This document shows positions 15,103 through 49,011 of a stretch of 64,000 nucleotides of DNA, piece after piece. Made by a program: the position numbers and the translations under genes. This DNA comes from a virus, in the IMG/VR virus record IMGVR_UViG_3300024275_000007; one strand, written 5' to 3'. Position 1 is the stretch's first letter; each line of letters begins with the position of its first letter. Below the pieces are notes generated by a model. The model was not told where the DNA came from. It was given only the letters and a program-made list of their open reading frames with translations, and made no database searches.

Positions 15103-15277
15103 TCACCGTAACAAGGAAATCGACGGTCCCGAGCGTCTCAGTGTCGATGAGGTCTGCCAGCGTATTGCCGACACCTTAGCAGACGTATATTCCGGTATGG
15201 ATATAGCGAGCATAGCCAACGGCATCCTGGACAAGAAAGTCACTTACGATGAAGACGGTATGTTTACCCTGAGGTAA
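15089..15277 (+). CDS. hypothetical protein
   Basis: 62 aa, in the operon chain. Confidence 0.7.
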   Translation: MTMPNHRNKEIDGPERLSVDEVCQRIADTLADVYSGMDIASIANGILDKKVTYDEDGMFTLR

Positions 15278-15279
15278 CT

Positions 15280-15555
15280 ATGAACAAAATACGTAAAGCT
15301 GTGACACTCATTGAAGTTATGATTATCATATCGATTATTGCTCTTATTGCCGCTATCACCATTCCAAGCTTTTTGCAGGTCCGCAGCTGGACGCAGCCCG
15401 GTCAGTATCGCATGTGGCATAACCACAGAGTATACGTTGTTACGGAGGATTATAAGACTTCTCCACAGACGTATATAGTGCGTACTGAGGATAACAAAGA
15501 AATCCATGTCAATTCAGATGAGTTAAGCCCAGACACAGCCGTGGAGAAGCAATAA
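15280..15555 (+). CDS. type IV pilin-like (prepilin N-methylation motif) protein
   Basis: MNKIRKA-VTLIEVMIIISIIALIAAITIPSFLQVR: basic leader, TLIE with E+5, hydrophobic helix ending IP. Confidence 0.75.
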   Translation: MNKIRKAVTLIEVMIIISIIALIAAITIPSFLQVRSWTQPGQYRMWHNHRVYVVTEDYKTSPQTYIVRTEDNKEIHVNSDELSPDTAVEKQ

Positions 15556-15744
15556 GTGGCTAGAAGCCTTACCAGGGATCAGCTGTGCTTGACTATCGCC
15601 ACTGAGATTGCTCAATGGAACAACGAGAGCCTCGAAACACTGGCGTGCCGCGTATTAGTGGATCACGTTAGACACATCGGGGACGGTATTTTCAAAGTCG
15701 GTGATATCGATGATATGAGGTTGAAACCAAAGGAGAGTCCGTGA
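15556..15744 (+). CDS. hypothetical protein
   Basis: 62 aa, abuts the upstream stop. Confidence 0.7.
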   Translation: MARSLTRDQLCLTIATEIAQWNNESLETLACRVLVDHVRHIGDGIFKVGDIDDMRLKPKESP

Positions 15745-38003: not shown

Positions 38004-41000
38004 ATGTCAGCTCAATCCTTTCTTGCCAAGTTAGGGCTGCGAACAGCAACCCTTGGTAGTCTAGCTAGTCTCGCCCTTGCCTTCCCCCTAGCTGAGGGAA
38101 GCATGGATCCAGCGGCGCATACTGATGCTACCCGCATCGGTGTGTTTGCTGCTCGTGGTGGTACCCCCGAAGTTGGCGTTGTAGTCAGTGGTACTCAGTC
38201 TCTCTCAGTTCGTCAGACCGGTGTAGTGGTTACCGGCACAATCAATGCTTCAAGTACAGTTACCTCAACTGGCGCAGTTTTAACTCCCGTAGCAGCTAAC
38301 CCCGGTGGTGCAACCACGATTTGGGTCGATAGCGCCGGCAATATTCTCAAGTTCGGTGCCAACCCAATGATTTCCGTTGGTGGCGCCGGTGCAGTACAGT
38401 TTAGCAATGGTTCCGGTGTTGACGGCGACGCCGCGACATTCTTCTGGGACAACACCCTGAAGGCTTTAGCGCTTGGCAGTAACACTCCAGCCGCTCGCCT
38501 TGACATACTTGGCTTAGACCTCAGCGCAGCTGCTGATGGTGCTGTTGGTGCAATTAACGTCCATTCCGGCGGTCTATCTAAGAACGATACGAACACCCGT
38601 CAGTTCTACGGTACTAGACTACGCCCGACCTTTAATACTGGTGCCAGCAACGCTAATACCACGTATGACATTTTGAATGTCGATTCAGTTAACGGCACCA
38701 CCACTGGTCTGACCGTCAATCTTGTCAGCCTCAACTACGGTGGTACCAACGTATTCAAGGTTGTCAGCGATGGCTCAACTGTCATTACTGGTGTTCCCTA
38801 TGTGTGGCCAACTGTCCAGGGTGCTGCCAACAGCATCATGCAGAACAATGGTTCAGGCACCCTTGTCTGGAATGCTGTATCAGGTGATGCCACGCTTAAT
38901 GGCTCCGGTGTACTAACTCTGGCTTCTACGATAACTGCCGGCGGTCCAACTGGCTCTGGTACTGTCGTCCCCGTTATCACCTATGATGCCAAGGGCCGTT
39001 TAACTGCTGTCACTACTGCCGCTATCACAGCTGCTGGCATCGGTGCCATTGGTGGTTCAATTGCCGCCAATCAGATCGCTTATGGTCTAGGCGCCAATAC
39101 GATTCAAGGTAGTGCGACGTTCCTCAATGTAGCCGGCCAAGTCACCCTCGGTACTGCTACTCCAGATGCTACTGCTAGCTTTACTCTCGTTGGACCAAGC
39201 CTAACGACTCAAGCTACGAACTCAATTGGTTCGGCTGTTATCGGCAGCACACTGTCGAAAAACGATACCAATACCCGTACGTTCTACGATACGCTGTATA
39301 AGCCAACCATTAACGCTGGCGGGTCCAACACCAATACGACCTTCAACGTCTTAGCAGTTGATACAGTTAACGCGGGTGTTACCGGGGTCACTACTAACTT
39401 ACTGAATCTGGCGTATGGTGGTACTACTGTAGCCACAATTACTTCCGTGGGTTCACTCACTGCCCAAAACATCAAGACTGAGCCCAACGGCAAAGTACGT
39501 CTAGGAAATGTTGATTTAGGCTACTCTAACCAAGTCAATACCGTAGTCATAGCTGTTGGTAACGCTAACCAGGCTAGTGATACCGGCTCTATTATTCTTG
39601 GTATGAATAGCGTTAATAGCTCTGTTTTGATGCCAAACGCTATTTTAATGGGTGACTCTATCAACGCCACATCGTCTGGTAGTTACCATTTCTACCATTT
39701 CGCGATGGGTCAATACATCAATATCACCAATTTCGATAAGACCATTACTCTTGGTTTCGGCGCAGCTACTGCTGGTGCCAGCAGACTAGCCCCAGTTGGT
39801 TCGAACAGTATTAACTTCGGCGTCAACTCCTCTGTCCCAACTCTTTGGATTGGAGCAGCCTCTGGAGTGGGAACTTTTGGACAAGTCGGTTTGGGCACTG
39901 TTACTGCTGATGCTACAGCGCGCTTCACTGTTCGTGGTACCGACTTAAGTACCGCAGTTGATCAATCAGTAGCTACTATTGCCGCCGGTTCTACACTTAC
40001 TAAGAACGATACGAATACCCGTGTATTCTATGGCACTCAATATAAGCCAACCTTTAACACTGGGGCTAGCAACGCTAATACGACATATAACGTTCTAGCA
40101 ATCGACTCGGTTAACACATCAGTAACTGGTTTAACCGTCAATCTGCTAAACCTGAATTATGGTGGTGTTAACGTCGGTAAGATCGATTCAACTGGCTTGG
40201 CTACCTTTAACGGTGGTATCAACAGCTCAGGTGTTGTAACCCTATCCCGCAACGGTTCTGGTACCGGCGATTACACCCTCGGTGTAACCGGCACAACCAT
40301 CAACAACGCCACTTCAAGCCAAGTTAGAATCGGTAGTGCTATCGCTAGCGGTAATACCGCTACCAATGGTGGTACCTACCTTGGAATCAATAGTGCCGCT
40401 TCCGGAGCCGGCTCTGCTGCTGATTTGATTCACGCTCAAGCTGCTGGTGTTTCAGCATTCCGTGTACTAAGCAATACGACGGTGCGTATCAATAGCACTG
40501 TAGATGATGCCACAGGAGTAGCACAACTTTCAGTGGCGAACGTTGTTACTGCTGCCAGTGCTGCGTGTCTGTTTGTAGATAACGGTAACGATACTGGGGC
40601 AGCTAGTACCGCAATTCTTGTACGTTCGAAAGGAAATACTGGGGCAAGCCGAGTATTCTGTGTCCGAAATCTAGATCACGCCGCACAATTCTCTTTCACG
40701 ATTGGTAGCCTTGGTGCTATGGCTTGGGGTTCTGGAGATGCTGCACGCGATGTAGGTCTTAGCCGCAGCACCTCTGTGGCAAACGCTCTAGTCGTAGATG
40801 GTGGTGGTAGCCCAGGAAACTTCCTGATCTCCGGTCGTCTCGGTGTTAACACGGGATCACTCAGCTCCACCAACGCTGTTATCTCAGTAACGCCATACAA
40901 CATTACTACAGATGCTGACAGCGCTACATCTGTGATGACATTCTCTGGCACTGTGCTCAGTAAGAACGATGCCAATACTCGGCAGTTCTATGGCTTCCGT

Positions 41001-44000
41001 TTCTTACCAACATTCAACACAGGTGCATCCAACACAGGTACGACCTACAACGTCATCAACGTTGATACGGTCAATACCTCCATCACCGGCCTAACCGTCA
41101 ATCTACTGAGCCTAAGCTCCGGTGGCACGAACGTCTTCTTGGTAGATTCCACTGGTGTTACGACTCTTCCCCGTGATGGTGCGGGTGCAGGCAACTATAC
41201 TCTCGGTTTGACTGGGCGTCCTAATCAGAGTGCTTCCTCTAGCCTCTTCCGACTCGGCAACGGCATCAGTGGTGGTAACAACGCTACCAATGGCGGTACC
41301 TACATCGGTATCAGCACACCAGGCTCTCTAGGCGGTTCAGCTGCTGACTTCATCAACTTCCAGAAGAATGGTACTTCAGTCTTTAATATTACCGTCAATG
41401 GCCTAACGGGTATCGGAAGCGCCGCCTCAGCTTCGACAGCGCTTCTGTTGCCCATTAGCACGACGACTATCAGCAGTCTTCGTATCCCTCACGGTGCAGC
41501 TCCAACCTCTCCGATTAATGGCGATATCTGGACTACATCAACCGCTATGTTCGTCCAGATCGGTGGTTCCACAGTACAACTTGGATCAGGCACTATTGGC
41601 GGCTCGATTGCAGCTAACCAAGTCGCCTTCGGTCTGGGCTCCAACACGATTCAGGGCAGTGCAAACCTCACTTACGACGGCACTACCCTGACGTCTGCTA
41701 GTCAGATCGTTAGCACCAAAGCCGGCGCAGCATCTGTCCCAGCAGTAACTCTCACAGGCGCTTGGTTCACTGGCGGGAGCGCTACAACCACGAAGCCCCA
41801 GCTACTCGTCGAGCCCACTGGTGCAACCTCAACCGGTTGGAGTACCAGCGGTACCGGCTTAGGCGTTAACGCCGCTTCAGGCTTTACTGGTAACTTGGTG
41901 GACCTACAGCTCAATGGTGTCAGTAAATTCAACGTTGCTTCTACTGGCGCCCTAACTGTTGTTAGCACATCAGTCAGTATCGGCACTGTCTCATATGTCT
42001 GGCCATCAAGCCAAGGCGCAGCTAGTACAGTCCTAACTAATGATGGTGCCGGTAACCTATCATGGGTAGCTGGTGGCGGTGGCGGTACCCCAGGTGGCTC
42101 AACGACTCAGCTCCAGTACAACAACGCCGGAGCTTTCGGCGGCATCGCTGGCTTTACCTATACCCCAGCTGGCTCGAACACCTTCGATCTCAACATGTCG
42201 CGCACCTATACTGGTCTTGCCAGTGGTAGCAACAAGTATGGCACGCTGAATTCGACTCTAAGCGTTACCCCGACGACCACAGCATCTGGCGGTACCGGTT
42301 ATGCTCTTCGTGGCGCTCTCAGCATTGACGATGTCACCGGCTTGGCCAGCACGAACGGTTCGCTATTCGCCATCGAAGCGAGCATCACTGATGCGTCAAT
42401 CGTGGGCGGTACATGGAATGGTACTATTGGTGCTTTCCGCGCTGTAACCGACATATCAACTGACAACAATACCGCTGGTGCATTCTCCGCAGTTGGTGGC
42501 GCCCACAATACGACTGGTATAAACGTAGCAGCAACCAAGTCCTACACTGGGTCGGCTACAAGTTACGTCGGTATCGTTTCTACGGTTCAGTTGACAACCA
42601 CAGGCACTGTTACAAGTGCTTACGGTGTCCGTATGGGTGGTATCACCGCCAGCTCCGGTGCTATCACCACAGCCTATGGCGTTTACATCGAGACTGTCAC
42701 TGGTACCGGTATCACCACTGGTTATGGTCTCTACCAAGTCGATACAGGTGCGCTGAACTTCTTCGGCGGTGTAGTAGCAGTAGCTGGTGCTACCCCAATA
42801 ACTTCGACCGCCTTAATCACCCCAGCATCGACTACGGCTCGTAGCAGCTTGCGTATTCCGCATGGTACGGCTCCGACATCACCGGTTAACGGCGATATCT
42901 GGACTGATACGACTGGGCTGTTCGTACGAGTCAATAACGCGACAGTGAAGATGGGTACCGTTGGTGGTACGTTCAGCCAGAATCAGATAACCTTTGGTTC
43001 CGCGACTGCTAATCAGATCTCTGGATCTTCGAAGCTGACCTGGGATGATACCAGCGCTATGTTCCATATCACAGCCAGTAACTTCACGGCTTCGTCTGGT
43101 ATTGCTAGAATCAACGGCGACTTCTCCGGCTCAGCCGGTAACCACTACATGAGTGGTTTGACGATTACTCTGGATAACGCCCAGACCGGTGGTTCGAACA
43201 ACTCCATAGACGGCGTCCTAACGAACATCTCCTGCACCGGTAACGGAACCACCAACAACACCGTTAACGGTTTCCGTACCATCGTCAGCCTCCCCACTGG
43301 GCAGAATACTAGCCAGGCAACACTCTTTACTGGATCGATGACGACCTCGGGTGGCAGCACGTACACGTCGGTCTACGGAAGCAATCTGAGCGCCTCGATC
43401 GATGGTGCAGTAACAAACTTCATCGGTTACGAGATAGCTGCCGCAATAAACAGCACCATATCGACAGCTGTAGTCGGGTATAGCGAGACCACTTCTACCA
43501 GCGGTGGTGTTATAACCATACCGACTCTGCGTGGTTTCTCCTCTACCGCTACGGTCAGCTCTGGCGATATCGCCAATGACTTCATGAGCTTCTATGCAGC
43601 CCCACAGCTGCTAGGCGTCTCTACGAACGTCTATGGCGCCTATCTGGCTCCGAACGTCAACGGCTCTGGCGTCGCCACTAACCTCTACGGTATCTACATC
43701 GCCCCACAGAACACTGGGGCGGTTACTAACATGTATGGCATCTATCAGGCTGGTGCCAATGTTAACAACCAGTTCGAAGGTCCAGTCATCTCGAATCTGT
43801 CCCCGTCGGCATCACAAAATGCTGTGGTCCTGACTGGTACTTGGTTTACTGGCGGTGATGACACCACGACTAAGCCACTAGTCTTGATTGAGCCATCGGG
43901 CACAACTTCGAATAACTGGAGCACCGCTGGGACTGCCTTTGGTATTAACGCCAATGTTGCCTTCGTTGGTAACCTAGTTGACCTCAAGGTTAACGCTGCT

Positions 44001-44345
44001 TCCTACTTCAAGGTCGATAATCTTGGTACAGCAGTCATCAGCGGTCTTGCCGATCTAAGGGTAGGCGATGTCTCATCGTCTTGGACTGATAGCGGTTCAC
44101 AGGTTATTCAGGACAATTCCTGGAATATCATCAATACCAACTCGTCAACGATCTCAACGTTTACGCTGGATATGATGCCAAACCCGATCGATGGTAAGAT
44201 AACTACCATCGTCACCGCTGGGGATGTAACTACCTTTACCTTGAATGGTAATGGGCACACAGTTAATAACGCCCCAGGCGCTCTTGTAGCCAATACCAGC
44301 GTGTCATTCATCTACTTCGGCGGTATCTGGTATCGCCTCTACTAA
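38004..44345 (+). CDS. giant repeat-rich tail fibre/adhesin-like protein (2113 aa)
   Basis: G/T/S/N-rich beta-type sequence with several internal repeat families. Confidence 0.8.
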   Translation: MSAQSFLAKLGLRTATLGSLASLALAFPLAEGSMDPAAHTDATRIGVFAARGGTPEVGVVVSGTQSLSVRQTGVVVTGTINASSTVTSTGAVLTPVAANPGGATTIWVDSAGNILKFGANPMISVGGAGAVQFSNGSGVDGDAATFFWDNTLKALALGSNTPAARLDILGLDLSAAADGAVGAINVHSGGLSKNDTNTRQFYGTRLRPTFNTGASNANTTYDILNVDSVNGTTTGLTVNLVSLNYGGTNVFKVVSDGSTVITGVPYVWPTVQGAANSIMQNNGSGTLVWNAVSGDATLNGSGVLTLASTITAGGPTGSGTVVPVITYDAKGRLTAVTTAAITAAGIGAIGGSIAANQIAYGLGANTIQGSATFLNVAGQVTLGTATPDATASFTLVGPSLTTQATNSIGSAVIGSTLSKNDTNTRTFYDTLYKPTINAGGSNTNTTFNVLAVDTVNAGVTGVTTNLLNLAYGGTTVATITSVGSLTAQNIKTEPNGKVRLGNVDLGYSNQVNTVVIAVGNANQASDTGSIILGMNSVNSSVLMPNAILMGDSINATSSGSYHFYHFAMGQYINITNFDKTITLGFGAATAGASRLAPVGSNSINFGVNSSVPTLWIGAASGVGTFGQVGLGTVTADATARFTVRGTDLSTAVDQSVATIAAGSTLTKNDTNTRVFYGTQYKPTFNTGASNANTTYNVLAIDSVNTSVTGLTVNLLNLNYGGVNVGKIDSTGLATFNGGINSSGVVTLSRNGSGTGDYTLGVTGTTINNATSSQVRIGSAIASGNTATNGGTYLGINSAASGAGSAADLIHAQAAGVSAFRVLSNTTVRINSTVDDATGVAQLSVANVVTAASAACLFVDNGNDTGAASTAILVRSKGNTGASRVFCVRNLDHAAQFSFTIGSLGAMAWGSGDAARDVGLSRSTSVANALVVDGGGSPGNFLISGRLGVNTGSLSSTNAVISVTPYNITTDADSATSVMTFSGTVLSKNDANTRQFYGFRFLPTFNTGASNTGTTYNVINVDTVNTSITGLTVNLLSLSSGGTNVFLVDSTGVTTLPRDGAGAGNYTLGLTGRPNQSASSSLFRLGNGISGGNNATNGGTYIGISTPGSLGGSAADFINFQKNGTSVFNITVNGLTGIGSAASASTALLLPISTTTISSLRIPHGAAPTSPINGDIWTTSTAMFVQIGGSTVQLGSGTIGGSIAANQVAFGLGSNTIQGSANLTYDGTTLTSASQIVSTKAGAASVPAVTLTGAWFTGGSATTTKPQLLVEPTGATSTGWSTSGTGLGVNAASGFTGNLVDLQLNGVSKFNVASTGALTVVSTSVSIGTVSYVWPSSQGAASTVLTNDGAGNLSWVAGGGGGTPGGSTTQLQYNNAGAFGGIAGFTYTPAGSNTFDLNMSRTYTGLASGSNKYGTLNSTLSVTPTTTASGGTGYALRGALSIDDVTGLASTNGSLFAIEASITDASIVGGTWNGTIGAFRAVTDISTDNNTAGAFSAVGGAHNTTGINVAATKSYTGSATSYVGIVSTVQLTTTGTVTSAYGVRMGGITASSGAITTAYGVYIETVTGTGITTGYGLYQVDTGALNFFGGVVAVAGATPITSTALITPASTTARSSLRIPHGTAPTSPVNGDIWTDTTGLFVRVNNATVKMGTVGGTFSQNQITFGSATANQISGSSKLTWDDTSAMFHITASNFTASSGIARINGDFSGSAGNHYMSGLTITLDNAQTGGSNNSIDGVLTNISCTGNGTTNNTVNGFRTIVSLPTGQNTSQATLFTGSMTTSGGSTYTSVYGSNLSASIDGAVTNFIGYEIAAAINSTISTAVVGYSETTSTSGGVITIPTLRGFSSTATVSSGDIANDFMSFYAAPQLLGVSTNVYGAYLAPNVNGSGVATNLYGIYIAPQNTGAVTNMYGIYQAGANVNNQFEGPVISNLSPSASQNAVVLTGTWFTGGDDTTTKPLVLIEPSGTTSNNWSTAGTAFGINANVAFVGNLVDLKVNAASYFKVDNLGTAVISGLADLRVGDVSSSWTDSGSQVIQDNSWNIINTNSSTISTFTLDMMPNPIDGKITTIVTAGDVTTFTLNGNGHTVNNAPGALVANTSVSFIYFGGIWYRLY
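38574..41150 (+). repeat. four ~63-aa (S/T)KND(T/A)NTR.FY repeats inside the giant protein
   Basis: Copies start at 38574, 39252, 39996 and 40956. Confidence 0.9.
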
Positions 44346-46491: not shown

Positions 46492-47484
46492 ATGCTAGAT
46501 GAGTTAGTCACTATAGTGGAAGCCATTAAAGGCTATTCACCGGTTGCCCTCTTACTTATCCTTATCGTGGTGGTCATCTTTAGATGGTTCGCCAGTAAAG
46601 ACAAGGAAACTGAAGCCCAGGCTGAGAAACACTTAGCCCAGCAGATCGATACTGCTGTGTCGAATACCGTTGCACTTCAAGCAGTTGTGAGTAAAAGTGT
46701 AGAAGGACAAAAGAACATGATAGGGGTATTGTCTAGTTTATCCGAGGCTAATGACATCCGGTTCGCCCAGGAAGTCTCAGTACTCCAACAGATACATCGC
46801 CAACTTGTTACATTGAATGCAGTTACAGCGAGTGCTGTTAGCCCGGCCAACGCCAAGGTGATCATAGAGCAGAACTGGAATTGGTGCCGTGACGAAACCG
46901 CTAGAGTCATCACTGGTTCCATAAGGAATAACCACTTCAAAGGTAATGAGGAACGTGTTGCCCGTAGTGTCTACAAAGCCCTCCTCAAAGCTTGCACCGA
47001 CTCAATGGCTGGGATCACGAAGATCGAGGGTATCAAGTATCCGTATCACCACTTGTTCACGCATCACATCAAACTGATCTGGGAGATGCTCTGGGATTGG
47101 TCACTACCGGTATACCATGGTTCCCATGATGCCCAGTTAGATGCTAGCTTAAAAGACCTAACTGAGCGTATCGTAGCGATCTTCGACCAAGTCCTCATTT
47201 TGCACATAGAGATCGTAGAAGATATTGACAGTGGTCTATACTACGATGAGACCCAGAGCACCCGCCAAACGGCTATAGCATCCGATCTAACTATTCCAGC
47301 TAAGATGGCGCACAAGCTCATAGAGTTCACTCCCGACACTGGTGCCACATCGGGAATACGTCTACGTCTTACTACGGACTACATCAAGCAGCGGCTCATC
47401 GGTAACTTCCAAGAAGACCTCGCTAAGCAGGAATTCAAGCCCTACCAGAGGACCAAGAGTTCCGCAGAAATCCGTGTTCAATGA
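46492..47484 (+). CDS. membrane-anchored protein (possibly lysis-related)
   Basis: TM helix PVALLLILIVVVIFRWF, then a coiled coil and a soluble domain. Confidence 0.75.
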   Translation: MLDELVTIVEAIKGYSPVALLLILIVVVIFRWFASKDKETEAQAEKHLAQQIDTAVSNTVALQAVVSKSVEGQKNMIGVLSSLSEANDIRFAQEVSVLQQIHRQLVTLNAVTASAVSPANAKVIIEQNWNWCRDETARVITGSIRNNHFKGNEERVARSVYKALLKACTDSMAGITKIEGIKYPYHHLFTHHIKLIWEMLWDWSLPVYHGSHDAQLDASLKDLTERIVAIFDQVLILHIEIVEDIDSGLYYDETQSTRQTAIASDLTIPAKMAHKLIEFTPDTGATSGIRLRLTTDYIKQRLIGNFQEDLAKQEFKPYQRTKSSAEIRVQ

Positions 47485-48059
47485 CCATCGATTATCTGAA
47501 GATCCTCGGTCTAGGGGTGATTGCCTTCCTAGCTTTCACTGTGTATACTCATGGTAAGCAACCCGTAAGCGATATCCGTGGACTCACTCCAGTACATCAG
47601 AACCGGCCGAACCTCAACTGGTGGAAGGCTCCAGGCGATTCGGAAGGCACCTTCGAAGCTAAAGACAACGCTGGCAAGCATCTTGCTAGCTTTGCTACTG
47701 ATCGCAGTGGGGTCCTGTACCCCGAGGACGGACAGTCAAACATCCAACTTACCTATACCCCAAATTACTACGGCGGTAGAACAGTACTCGACCTCGGCGG
47801 CTGGGCCGGCTTTGCCCCGGGCTACAAAGAGCATCCAGCCCAAATCGGCCTCAGAGTCAGCCCCGTTAGACTCATCGAATCTGTCGCCCCCGAAATCGTC
47901 GTCTCCCACGACCTCATCGGTGTCGGTGCCACCTACTACTTCTCCAGAAACCTCGTCGGCCCCTCGTGGTCCAAAGTGGGATTGGGTTTCGATTACTGTG
48001 CTAGCTTTGACGGCACTTTCCGTGGTCCTGTATTTACGGTTGCAACATCAACCTTCTGA
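47481..48059 (+). CDS. exported or membrane-anchored protein with beta-strand-rich C-terminus
   Basis: N-terminal hydrophobic helix; IGVGATYYF and VGLGFDY strands; terminal Phe. Confidence 0.72.
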   Translation: MTIDYLKILGLGVIAFLAFTVYTHGKQPVSDIRGLTPVHQNRPNLNWWKAPGDSEGTFEAKDNAGKHLASFATDRSGVLYPEDGQSNIQLTYTPNYYGGRTVLDLGGWAGFAPGYKEHPAQIGLRVSPVRLIESVAPEIVVSHDLIGVGATYYFSRNLVGPSWSKVGLGFDYCASFDGTFRGPVFTVATSTF

Positions 48060-48426: not shown

Positions 48427-48468
48427 TTGGCTGACTTGACTTAACGTTTGCGCGGACACAATGCCGGC

Positions 48469-49011
48469 ATGCTAGAGTTGCCAGATCGGGCTTGTCTACA
48501 TTGTGGTAATCCTATTAAATTGATATGTAACAGGGACTTAGATCGTAAGAAGTACTGTTCGCATCGTTGTCGTATGTTGCATAGATACAAGCAAGCCCCT
48601 TGGGATATGCGACCTGTAATTGAGAAAAGTCACGGTACTGATAAACGTCCAGTAAAATCCAAGGTCTGTCCTTGCTGTGAAAACGAGTACTTGCCGATAA
48701 CTGGTAATCAACATTGGTGTCTAACCTGTGTCCCTGATAAGCGAGCCAGAAACGTGCTAGATAGATATGGTATCACTTATCCCGAATTCATGATTCTTCT
48801 TGCTAAGCAGGATGGCAAATGCGCTATATGTCAAGGAGAGATAGATCGAGATACAGCTAATATAGATCATGACCATGCGTGCTGTTCGGGCTCTAAAACG
48901 TGCGGTAGTTGCACCAGAGGCTTGCTATGCAATAGGTGCAACGTAGGATTACATTATGTCGAAAAGAAGGGCTGGCTCGACAATGCTAGCTCATACCTTA
49001 ACAGGAGTTAA
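48469..49011 (+). CDS. Endonuclease VII (HNH-like) family protein with Zn fingers
   Basis: YGIT..EF..LL.KQ.GKCAIC, IDHDH, RGLLC.RCN.GL. Confidence 0.88.
   Translation: MLELPDRACLHCGNPIKLICNRDLDRKKYCSHRCRMLHRYKQAPWDMRPVIEKSHGTDKRPVKSKVCPCCENEYLPITGNQHWCLTCVPDKRARNVLDRYGITYPEFMILLAKQDGKCAICQGEIDRDTANIDHDHACCSGSKTCGSCTRGLLCNRCNVGLHYVEKKGWLDNASSYLNRS

Follow-up and report, generated by a model that had tools for sequence, protein, structure and literature searches.

Motility, DNA uptake and secretion are driven by type IV pili and their related filaments, which are also major receptors of phages. Phage proteins directed at these filaments serve as tools for the study of pilus assembly and determine which phages can co-infect; the known phage inhibitors Tip, Aqs1 and PfsE are directed at the ATPase or the platform of the pilus. 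Small early superinfection-exclusion proteins such as T4 Imm and Sp have a single membrane helix at the N-terminus, a small part in the periplasm and no prepilin-type motif. The modular type IV pilins PilB and PilC of Streptococcus sanguinis consist of a complete pilin fold onto which a functional module is grafted. The phage pilins studied so far are copies or truncations of host pilins and come from cultured Pseudomonas and Xylella phages: P-FimU is found in F10-like prophages of P. aeruginosa, and P-PilA in Xylella prophages and in virulent phages (PMC12952977). P-FimU is built into the P. aeruginosa pilus, leaving the pilus unharmed while tip-binding phages are blocked (Sztanko 2026, PMC12952977). 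A truncated P-PilA of 60 residues occurs in six virulent Pseudomonas phages, and its authors suggest either incorporation or inhibition of assembly (PMC12952977). Similarly, pilins of the archaeal virus SNJ2 hijack the machinery of the host (PMC12426801).

The gene described here lies in the window, the whole stretch of 64,000 nucleotides of viral DNA that was analysed (IMG/VR record IMGVR_UViG_3300024275_000007), and encodes a protein of 91 residues, P0001, here termed a mini-pilin. Like P-FimU and P-PilA the mini-pilin is phage-encoded and has a prepilin-type N-terminus, and both kinds of protein would depend on the pilus machinery of the host. As in the truncated P-PilA, little more of the pilin than α1N is kept; some of these phage pilins belong to virulent phages, and the proposed role is again the exclusion of pilus-dependent phages. 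In contrast to P-FimU and P-PilA, which are full-length or truncated homologues of host pilins, the mini-pilin family displays no pilin similarity beyond approximately residue 40 and carries a barrel of its own. With type IVa pilins and Geobacter PilA-N (PDB 2m7g, 1oqw, 2hi2 and 8tj2) it shares the leader, Glu5, Pro22, α1N and a near-smallest size. It differs from type IVa pilins in the predicted lack of α1C, of a β-meander head and of a disulphide, and in having Ala at −1 and Val at +1; moreover, its gene is found within arrays of small phage genes rather than next to genes for pili. As in the modular pilins, a class III signal and a helix carry a non-pilin domain, although in the mini-pilin the barrel takes the place of the head, and the entire protein has fewer than 95 residues. 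T4 Imm and Sp resemble it in being small, with one N-terminal membrane helix and a small part beyond it, which in the mini-pilin is predicted to be periplasmic, and are set apart by the prepilin-type motif of the mini-pilin. Phage-encoded pilins are already known; what is new is a different design in uncultured phages of several lineages, in which a minimal prepilin module is joined to a private Tudor/SH3-like barrel. The features of the gene are as follows.

15280..15555, + strand: complete mini-pilin gene P0001, 91 aa (ORF list)
15267..15279, + strand: ribosome-binding region with GAGG, between the stop of the upstream 62-aa gene and the ATG (sequence)
15280..15300, + strand: leader MNKIRKA, three basic residues and Ala at −1, predicted to be cytoplasmic and to be removed by the host prepilin peptidase (sequence; cleavage by prediction)
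15301..15372, + strand: α1N-like hydrophobic helix VTLIEVMIIISIIALIAAITIPSF, with Glu at +5 and Pro at +22 (N_methyl match, PDB profile matches, AlphaFold2)
15373..15402, + strand: variable linker of ~10 residues, LQVRSWTQPG, from helix to barrel (lower pLDDT, 69 for the block 31–40, and length variation in the alignment)
15403..15531, + strand: predicted five-stranded Tudor/SH3-like small barrel, residues ~42–84, the family hallmark (AlphaFold2, Foldseek, VIA)
15538..15546, + strand: GTGGAGAAG, which codes for the conserved V-E-K tail and doubles as the Shine-Dalgarno of the gene that starts with GTG at 15556 (sequence)

The mini-pilin gene is real, conserved and phage-restricted. Its ATG is preceded at 7 nt by the GAGG Shine-Dalgarno and at 2 nt by the stop codon of the upstream 62-aa gene, and the GTG start of the downstream gene, at 15556, follows immediately after its own stop codon. 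This tight spacing suggests that the gene is transcribed within the array; a promoter and terminator scan around it gave nothing above shuffled expectation. A protein 100% identical to P0001 is encoded on three metagenome contigs, an 84-kb ENA contig and two shorter ones. When compared with three phage relatives of the same lineage, at which distance synonymous sites are saturated, both halves of the gene display dN/dS values of 0.06–0.15, showing that it is translated and under constraint. An antisense ORF of 87 aa at 15244–15507 (− strand) overlaps the gene and is regarded as a coding-strand artefact, given this selection on the + frame.

Judged by its residues, the N-terminus of P0001 is a genuine prepilin-type motif. 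The protein starts with MNKIRKA followed by VTLIEVMIIISIIALIAAITIPSF, and the basic leader, Ala at −1 and Glu at +5 are as the sequence-only reading had described them; Val at +1 and Pro at +22 complete the pattern, the latter being the same as in type IVa pilins. The hydrophobic helix comprises 23 residues, with Glu +5 as the sole charge in the run, and VTLIEVMIIISIIALIAAITIPSF displays the stretch of ~21 hydrophobic residues, broken only by Glu +5, that is characteristic of a class III signal. The leader is short and basic as in class III signals but ends in Ala rather than Gly. That reading had also named N_methyl and TIGR02532 as the models by which the motif should be recognised, and the two differ in outcome. 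Pfam N_methyl (PF07963) matches residues 5–27 with 22.3 bits against a gathering score of 21.2, corresponding to E 9.4e-5 for the whole library and ~4e-9 for the single model, a value much lower than chance would give among the window's ~1,500 ORFs, whereas TIGR02532 (IV_pilin_GFxxxE) gives 14.0 bits, under its curated cut-off of 16.3. The top NCBIfam rows are Myxococcus PilA (1.9e-6) and E. coli PpdD (8.6e-6), both through the N-terminus only, and the GspG model TIGR01710 reaches 15.5 bits against a cut-off of 88.85, again over the N-terminus only. A motif scan of the window in six frames revealed no second class-III-like ORF.

When the profile of the mini-pilin family was compared with PDB sequences, it matched type IV pilins exclusively and over α1N alone. 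Geobacter PilA-N scored best (2e-8), followed by the pilins of Myxococcus, Neisseria, Pseudomonas and Thermus (1e-6 to 1e-5), with PilE, PilA and PpdD at 1e-6 to 1e-4. GspG lagged at E 0.025, whereas type IVa pilins reached 1e-6 to 1e-8. The pilin matches of P0001 stop by residue ~40–49, and likeness to host pilins was not found beyond α1N.

The type IV pilin fold is built on an α1 helix of ~50 residues, the second half of which is packed on a head formed by a four-stranded antiparallel β-meander (PMC4471445). The AlphaFold2 model of P0001, calculated from a 12-sequence alignment (mean pLDDT 82), departs from this fold: a 23-residue helix (residues 10–32) is followed, with no α1C, by a five-stranded barrel whose strands span residues 43–46, 49–57, 64–68, 74–78 and 82–84, with pLDDT ~90 over residues 41–80. 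We thus assign the C-terminal ~50 residues with high confidence, on the basis of this model, to a five-stranded Tudor/SH3-like barrel rather than a pilin head. Foldseek against the PDB and VIA-align against 48,161 chains recovered mostly Tudor, KOW, SH3 and chromo-like barrels, the best structural match having Z 7.9 and an rmsd of ~2 Å over ~51 residues, and no pilin was present among the structural matches listed by either program. The statement made from the letters alone, that the β-rich C-terminal domain does not look like a pilin head, agrees well with these Tudor/KOW/SH3-like matches. Searches of BFVD and the ESM Atlas returned small uncharacterised phage and bacterial barrels. Throughout the PDB, BFVD and ESM Atlas fold searches the matches are to generic small barrels (Z ≤ 7.9, E ≥ 0.007) and yielded no functional lead; the barrel is a common generic fold and therefore gives no clue to function. 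The C-terminal part has no Pfam family in any of 14 members (14/14), and the barrel was not found outside the mini-pilin family by the exhaustive phmmer search. Residues V51, P62, R68 and E81 of the barrel are invariant in the family alignment.

Bacterial leaders of class III signals end in Gly, and Gly-1 is 'absolutely critical' for processing in the systems studied, while Glu5 is unnecessary for cleavage and required for assembly (review by Berry and Pelicic, PMC4471445). The residue at −1 in 15 scored members of the family, whose leaders vary from 4 to 11 residues, is Ala in 12 and Gly in 3. Ala at −1, which had been singled out as unusual, is therefore the majority state in this family, and it also occurs in cellular prepilin-type proteins. 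Thus, 85 of 105 other prepilin-type N-termini retrieved have Ala at −1, a count from a query-biased sample (MRKAF-like words) that demonstrates occurrence and not frequency; they include full-size pilin-like proteins and proteins named prepilin-type or DUF1559 by their sources, for example from Armatimonadota. Since cellular prepilin-type proteins share this residue, Ala at −1 is no argument against cleavage, and its interpretation as the sign of an uncleavable decoy was downgraded. Glu5, in turn, is invariant in 14 of 14 aligned members while the remainder of the helix drifts, and its retention points to the assembly step and not to a mere membrane anchor or a peptidase decoy.

The mini-pilins constitute a rare family. 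It comprises about 17 sequence clusters, each of 83–93 aa and each retaining both modules. Exhaustive phmmer searching of 1.84 billion representatives retrieved about ten further proteins that match over their full length (83–91 aa, 37–72% identity), the members being P0002, P0003, P0005–P0010, P0012, P0014 and P0015. A profile search of a 5.8-billion-protein collection added P0043, P0045 and P0046, the scores dropping there from 108 to 61 bits, and P0044 and P0129 were read from loci. All members derive from metagenomes and are nameless in every source. N_methyl matches 10 of 14 members and TIGR02532 7 of 14 (E ≤ 0.01; best TIGR02532 value 6.7e-10), with an N_methyl score of 30.9 bits for the IMG/VR relative of the window, and the hydrophobic segment is degenerate in four members. 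In the GenBank phage collection P0001 had no tblastn match and the surrounding 7.9 kb no blastn match. No cellular copy was present in species genomes among the matches listed, in a search that reaches close relatives. Several pilin-like families are already included in PHROGs, mostly of unknown function. A protein of 2,243 aa, P0004, with 16 matched stretches and E 5e-15, was at first taken for a repeat form of the barrel; it is made up of an MBG_2 unit repeated identically 16 times, each repeat matching the query with ~25% identity over a repeat junction, and was rejected because its score is the sum of a weak match over these repeats.

In other phage proteins the N-terminal module, MRKAFTLIELMI...AIAIPN/Q, is fused to unrelated short C-terminal bodies (P0047, P0049, P0050 and P0051), a pattern that suggests swapping of modules among phage mini-pilins. 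The V-E-K tail recurs in mini-pilins with other C-terminal bodies. As a protein motif, V-E-K-x was set aside, since it coincides with the Shine-Dalgarno GTGGAGAAG of the following gene; the tail would be the imprint of a ribosome-binding site and need not be a protein motif. The last codons of several small genes nearby likewise encode E-V or V-E and so contain a GAGG ahead of the following start.

The window consists of a one-strand gene array in which nearly all genes are without family matches, the exceptions being DUF932, an AAA ATPase, NUDIX, NUMOD4, endonuclease VII, tRNA-Met and tRNA-Asn. Pfam and PHROG scans of its 30 larger proteins identified DUF932, AAA, NUDIX and endonuclease VII only, and no host marker among these 30. 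The mini-pilin gene belongs to an extended series of small genes that separates the AAA/NUMOD4 block from a sigma-like gene, and this series looks like an early or host-takeover region, 'early' being deduced from the position in the array. A locus search with the single protein found one IMG/VR relative (L014, IMGVR_UViG_3300028800_000073), a contig of 79.8 kb in which no Peptidase_A24 was found. CheckV rates this contig as 43% complete, suggesting a genome near 185 kb for the lineage. The one-strand array of mostly unknown genes, together with this relative, upholds the assignment of the gene to a phage made by the sequence-only reading.

Nine contexts of family members were read, representing at least six unrelated backbones, and every one displays a phage-like run of small genes, mostly on one strand. 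In the lineage of the window (L001 and L011–L014) the mini-pilin gene is syntenic. The other settings are a short array with DUF6876 (L005), a 123-kb contig with rIIB (L006), a contig with the Kyano_Gp96 and P22_Y8K6 families (L007), contigs with Thy1, DUF1643 and DUF3850 (L008–L010) and a 62-kb contig (L016). Apart from the mini-pilin itself, no neighbour gene common to the unrelated backbones was found, and the contexts read contain no pilus or secretion machinery genes near the family members. The absence of both suggests a self-contained module relying on the machinery of the host, and the mini-pilin gene behaves like an independent module passed from phage to phage. Tandem arrangements recur as well. 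In L011–L013 the pair P0043 then P0015 (L011:7738-8270) is only ~37% identical to the window protein, in L016:5717-6213, from a phage unrelated to that of the window, the family member P0129 is directly followed by a different mini-pilin, P0049, and on the contig of P0047 two N_methyl genes lie ~500 bp apart. Tandem duplicates and swapped C-terminal bodies fit a fast-evolving gene of surface interaction.

The reading that we prefer, to which sequence and comparative analysis lend about an even chance, is that of a phage mini-pilin dependent on prepilin peptidase that would enter or jam the type IV filament machinery of the host and so alter the pili of infected cells. We infer its topology, its cleavage, its contact with the pilus machinery and the outcome as follows. 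The SRP/Sec route of the host would place the 91-aa protein in the inner membrane so that the leader faces the cytoplasm and the barrel the periplasm, and the host prepilin peptidase would cut the 7-residue leader after Ala7, giving a mature protein of 84 aa. The mature protein would then offer α1N and the assembly-critical Glu5 to the type IV filament machinery, most likely that of a type IVa pilus and possibly a T2SS or a competence pilus. The mini-pilin may replace a host subunit in the filament or at its tip, or may stall assembly, with the Tudor/SH3-like barrel standing in for the normal pilin head. The non-pilin head and the lack of α1C in the model mean that incorporation into a filament is not assured. 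The phage would benefit from a changed or disabled pilus either through exclusion of competing or sibling phages or through the shutdown of a surface function of the host. A 'poison', a 'cap' and a 'harmless replacement' all fit, so that the dominant-negative action is one of several possible outcomes. The prior view that phages block pilus receptors for superinfection exclusion has its precedent in P-FimU (PMC12952977).

The retention of Glu5 bears directly on whether the protein might instead be simply a bitopic protein of the inner membrane, akin to T4 Imm and Sp, with an uncleaved N-in/C-out anchor and a periplasmic barrel that acts on another target such as peptidoglycan, the injection route or a periplasmic protein, for example by blocking the DNA entry of superinfecting phages. 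A plain anchor would have difficulty in explaining a membrane-buried Glu that is invariant in 14/14 members at exactly +5 from Ala/Gly, and the short basic leader and Pro +22 are equally hard to explain. The N-terminal module is, in addition, near-identical to cellular prepilin N-termini and reused with other bodies, so the module itself appears to be selected. This explanation is nevertheless consistent with the small size of the protein and its location within a host-takeover-like gene array, with the strongest conservation besides Glu5 being that of V51, P62, R68 and E81 in the barrel, and with the four members whose N-termini are too degenerate for N_methyl. Such small barrels are also common in phage proteins, and in the Sulfolobus bindosome a class III signal does no more than bring binding proteins to the surface (PMC4471445). 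We consider the plain anchor rather unlikely, though worth keeping in view. If the protein were a mere membrane anchor, the result would amount to the modest annotation of a new family of small phage proteins.

The residue at −1 gives rise to another explanation, according to which the protein acts on the host prepilin peptidase as a decoy substrate or inhibitor: Ala −1 and Val +1 would be bound and poorly cut, the enzyme would be titrated, and pilins and pseudopilins would be left unprocessed. The replacement of the canonical Gly by Ala in 12/15 members and the critical role of Gly-1 for processing in studied systems (PMC4471445) agree with such a decoy, by which one small protein could shut down pili, T2SS and competence together. 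However, Ala −1 is found in cellular DUF1559-type proteins and in the full-size pilins P0021 and P0054, which are presumably processed, three family members have Gly −1, and an inhibitor could do without an invariant Glu5, a residue on which processing does not depend, and without a conserved barrel in the periplasm, making this mechanism highly improbable. It also seems very unlikely that the mini-pilin is a subunit directed by the phage, polymerised by the host machine alone or with its tandem paralogue, or used to display the barrel on the surface, since the helix has no α1C, the predicted head is not a pilin fold and a large virulent phage has little time to profit from new filaments. In its favour, viral pilins that hijack host machinery for filaments of their own are documented for SNJ2 (PMC12426801), very small pilins polymerise, the best PDB match being the 61-residue Geobacter PilA-N, and tandem pairs recur in related and in unrelated phages.

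If the mini-pilin is processed and incorporated, as the preferred reading allows, it would offer a natural probe of very small size for the demands that the assembly machine makes on a subunit (α1N and Glu5, without a pilin head), and the interchangeable C-terminal bodies would suggest that phages have a modular set of tools directed at the cell surface. The boldest form of this reading is distinctly unlikely. It would hold that a class of mini-pilins confined to phages, with the barrel in place of the head, has been sighted here for the first time. This class would spread as an independent module among unrelated uncultured phages, frequently as tandem copies or with exchanged bodies, and would be built into host filaments as a cap, chain terminator or decoration. 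Large virulent phages would then routinely re-engineer filaments early in infection, in contrast to the mechanisms of Tip, Aqs1, PfsE or P-FimU.

Clues to the host are few. The earlier suggestion of a Verrucomicrobia/PVC host keeps one N-terminal match, to Victivallales (PVC), in its favour, while the top HMM rows, Myxococcus PilA and E. coli PpdD, stand against it, and the clue is weak. TIGR02596 (Verrucomicrobia cassette protein D) gives E 0.39 on P0001. The closest cellular N-termini among the matches listed belong to Victivallales, Armatimonadetes and Omnitrophota genomes, all with Gly at −1 and all matching over the N-terminus only; α1N is too conserved across bacteria to identify a host. 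Elsewhere in the window, a protein of 192 aa (47481–48059) has no Pfam match and displays an N-terminal hydrophobic segment and a C-terminus, ...FRGPVFTVATSTF (...TVATSTF), that resembles an outer-membrane β-barrel insertion signal. By these features it could be an outer-membrane protein encoded by the phage, which would hint at a diderm host. A protein of 2,113 aa (38004–44345), without a Pfam or PHROG match, contains several internal repeats of ~200 aa (...SKNDTNTR.FYG...PTFNTGASN.NTTYNVL.VDSVN...) and looks fibre-like. A Cys-rich protein of 187 aa (48448–49011) carries a C-terminal recombination endonuclease VII domain (Pfam 1.5e-14).
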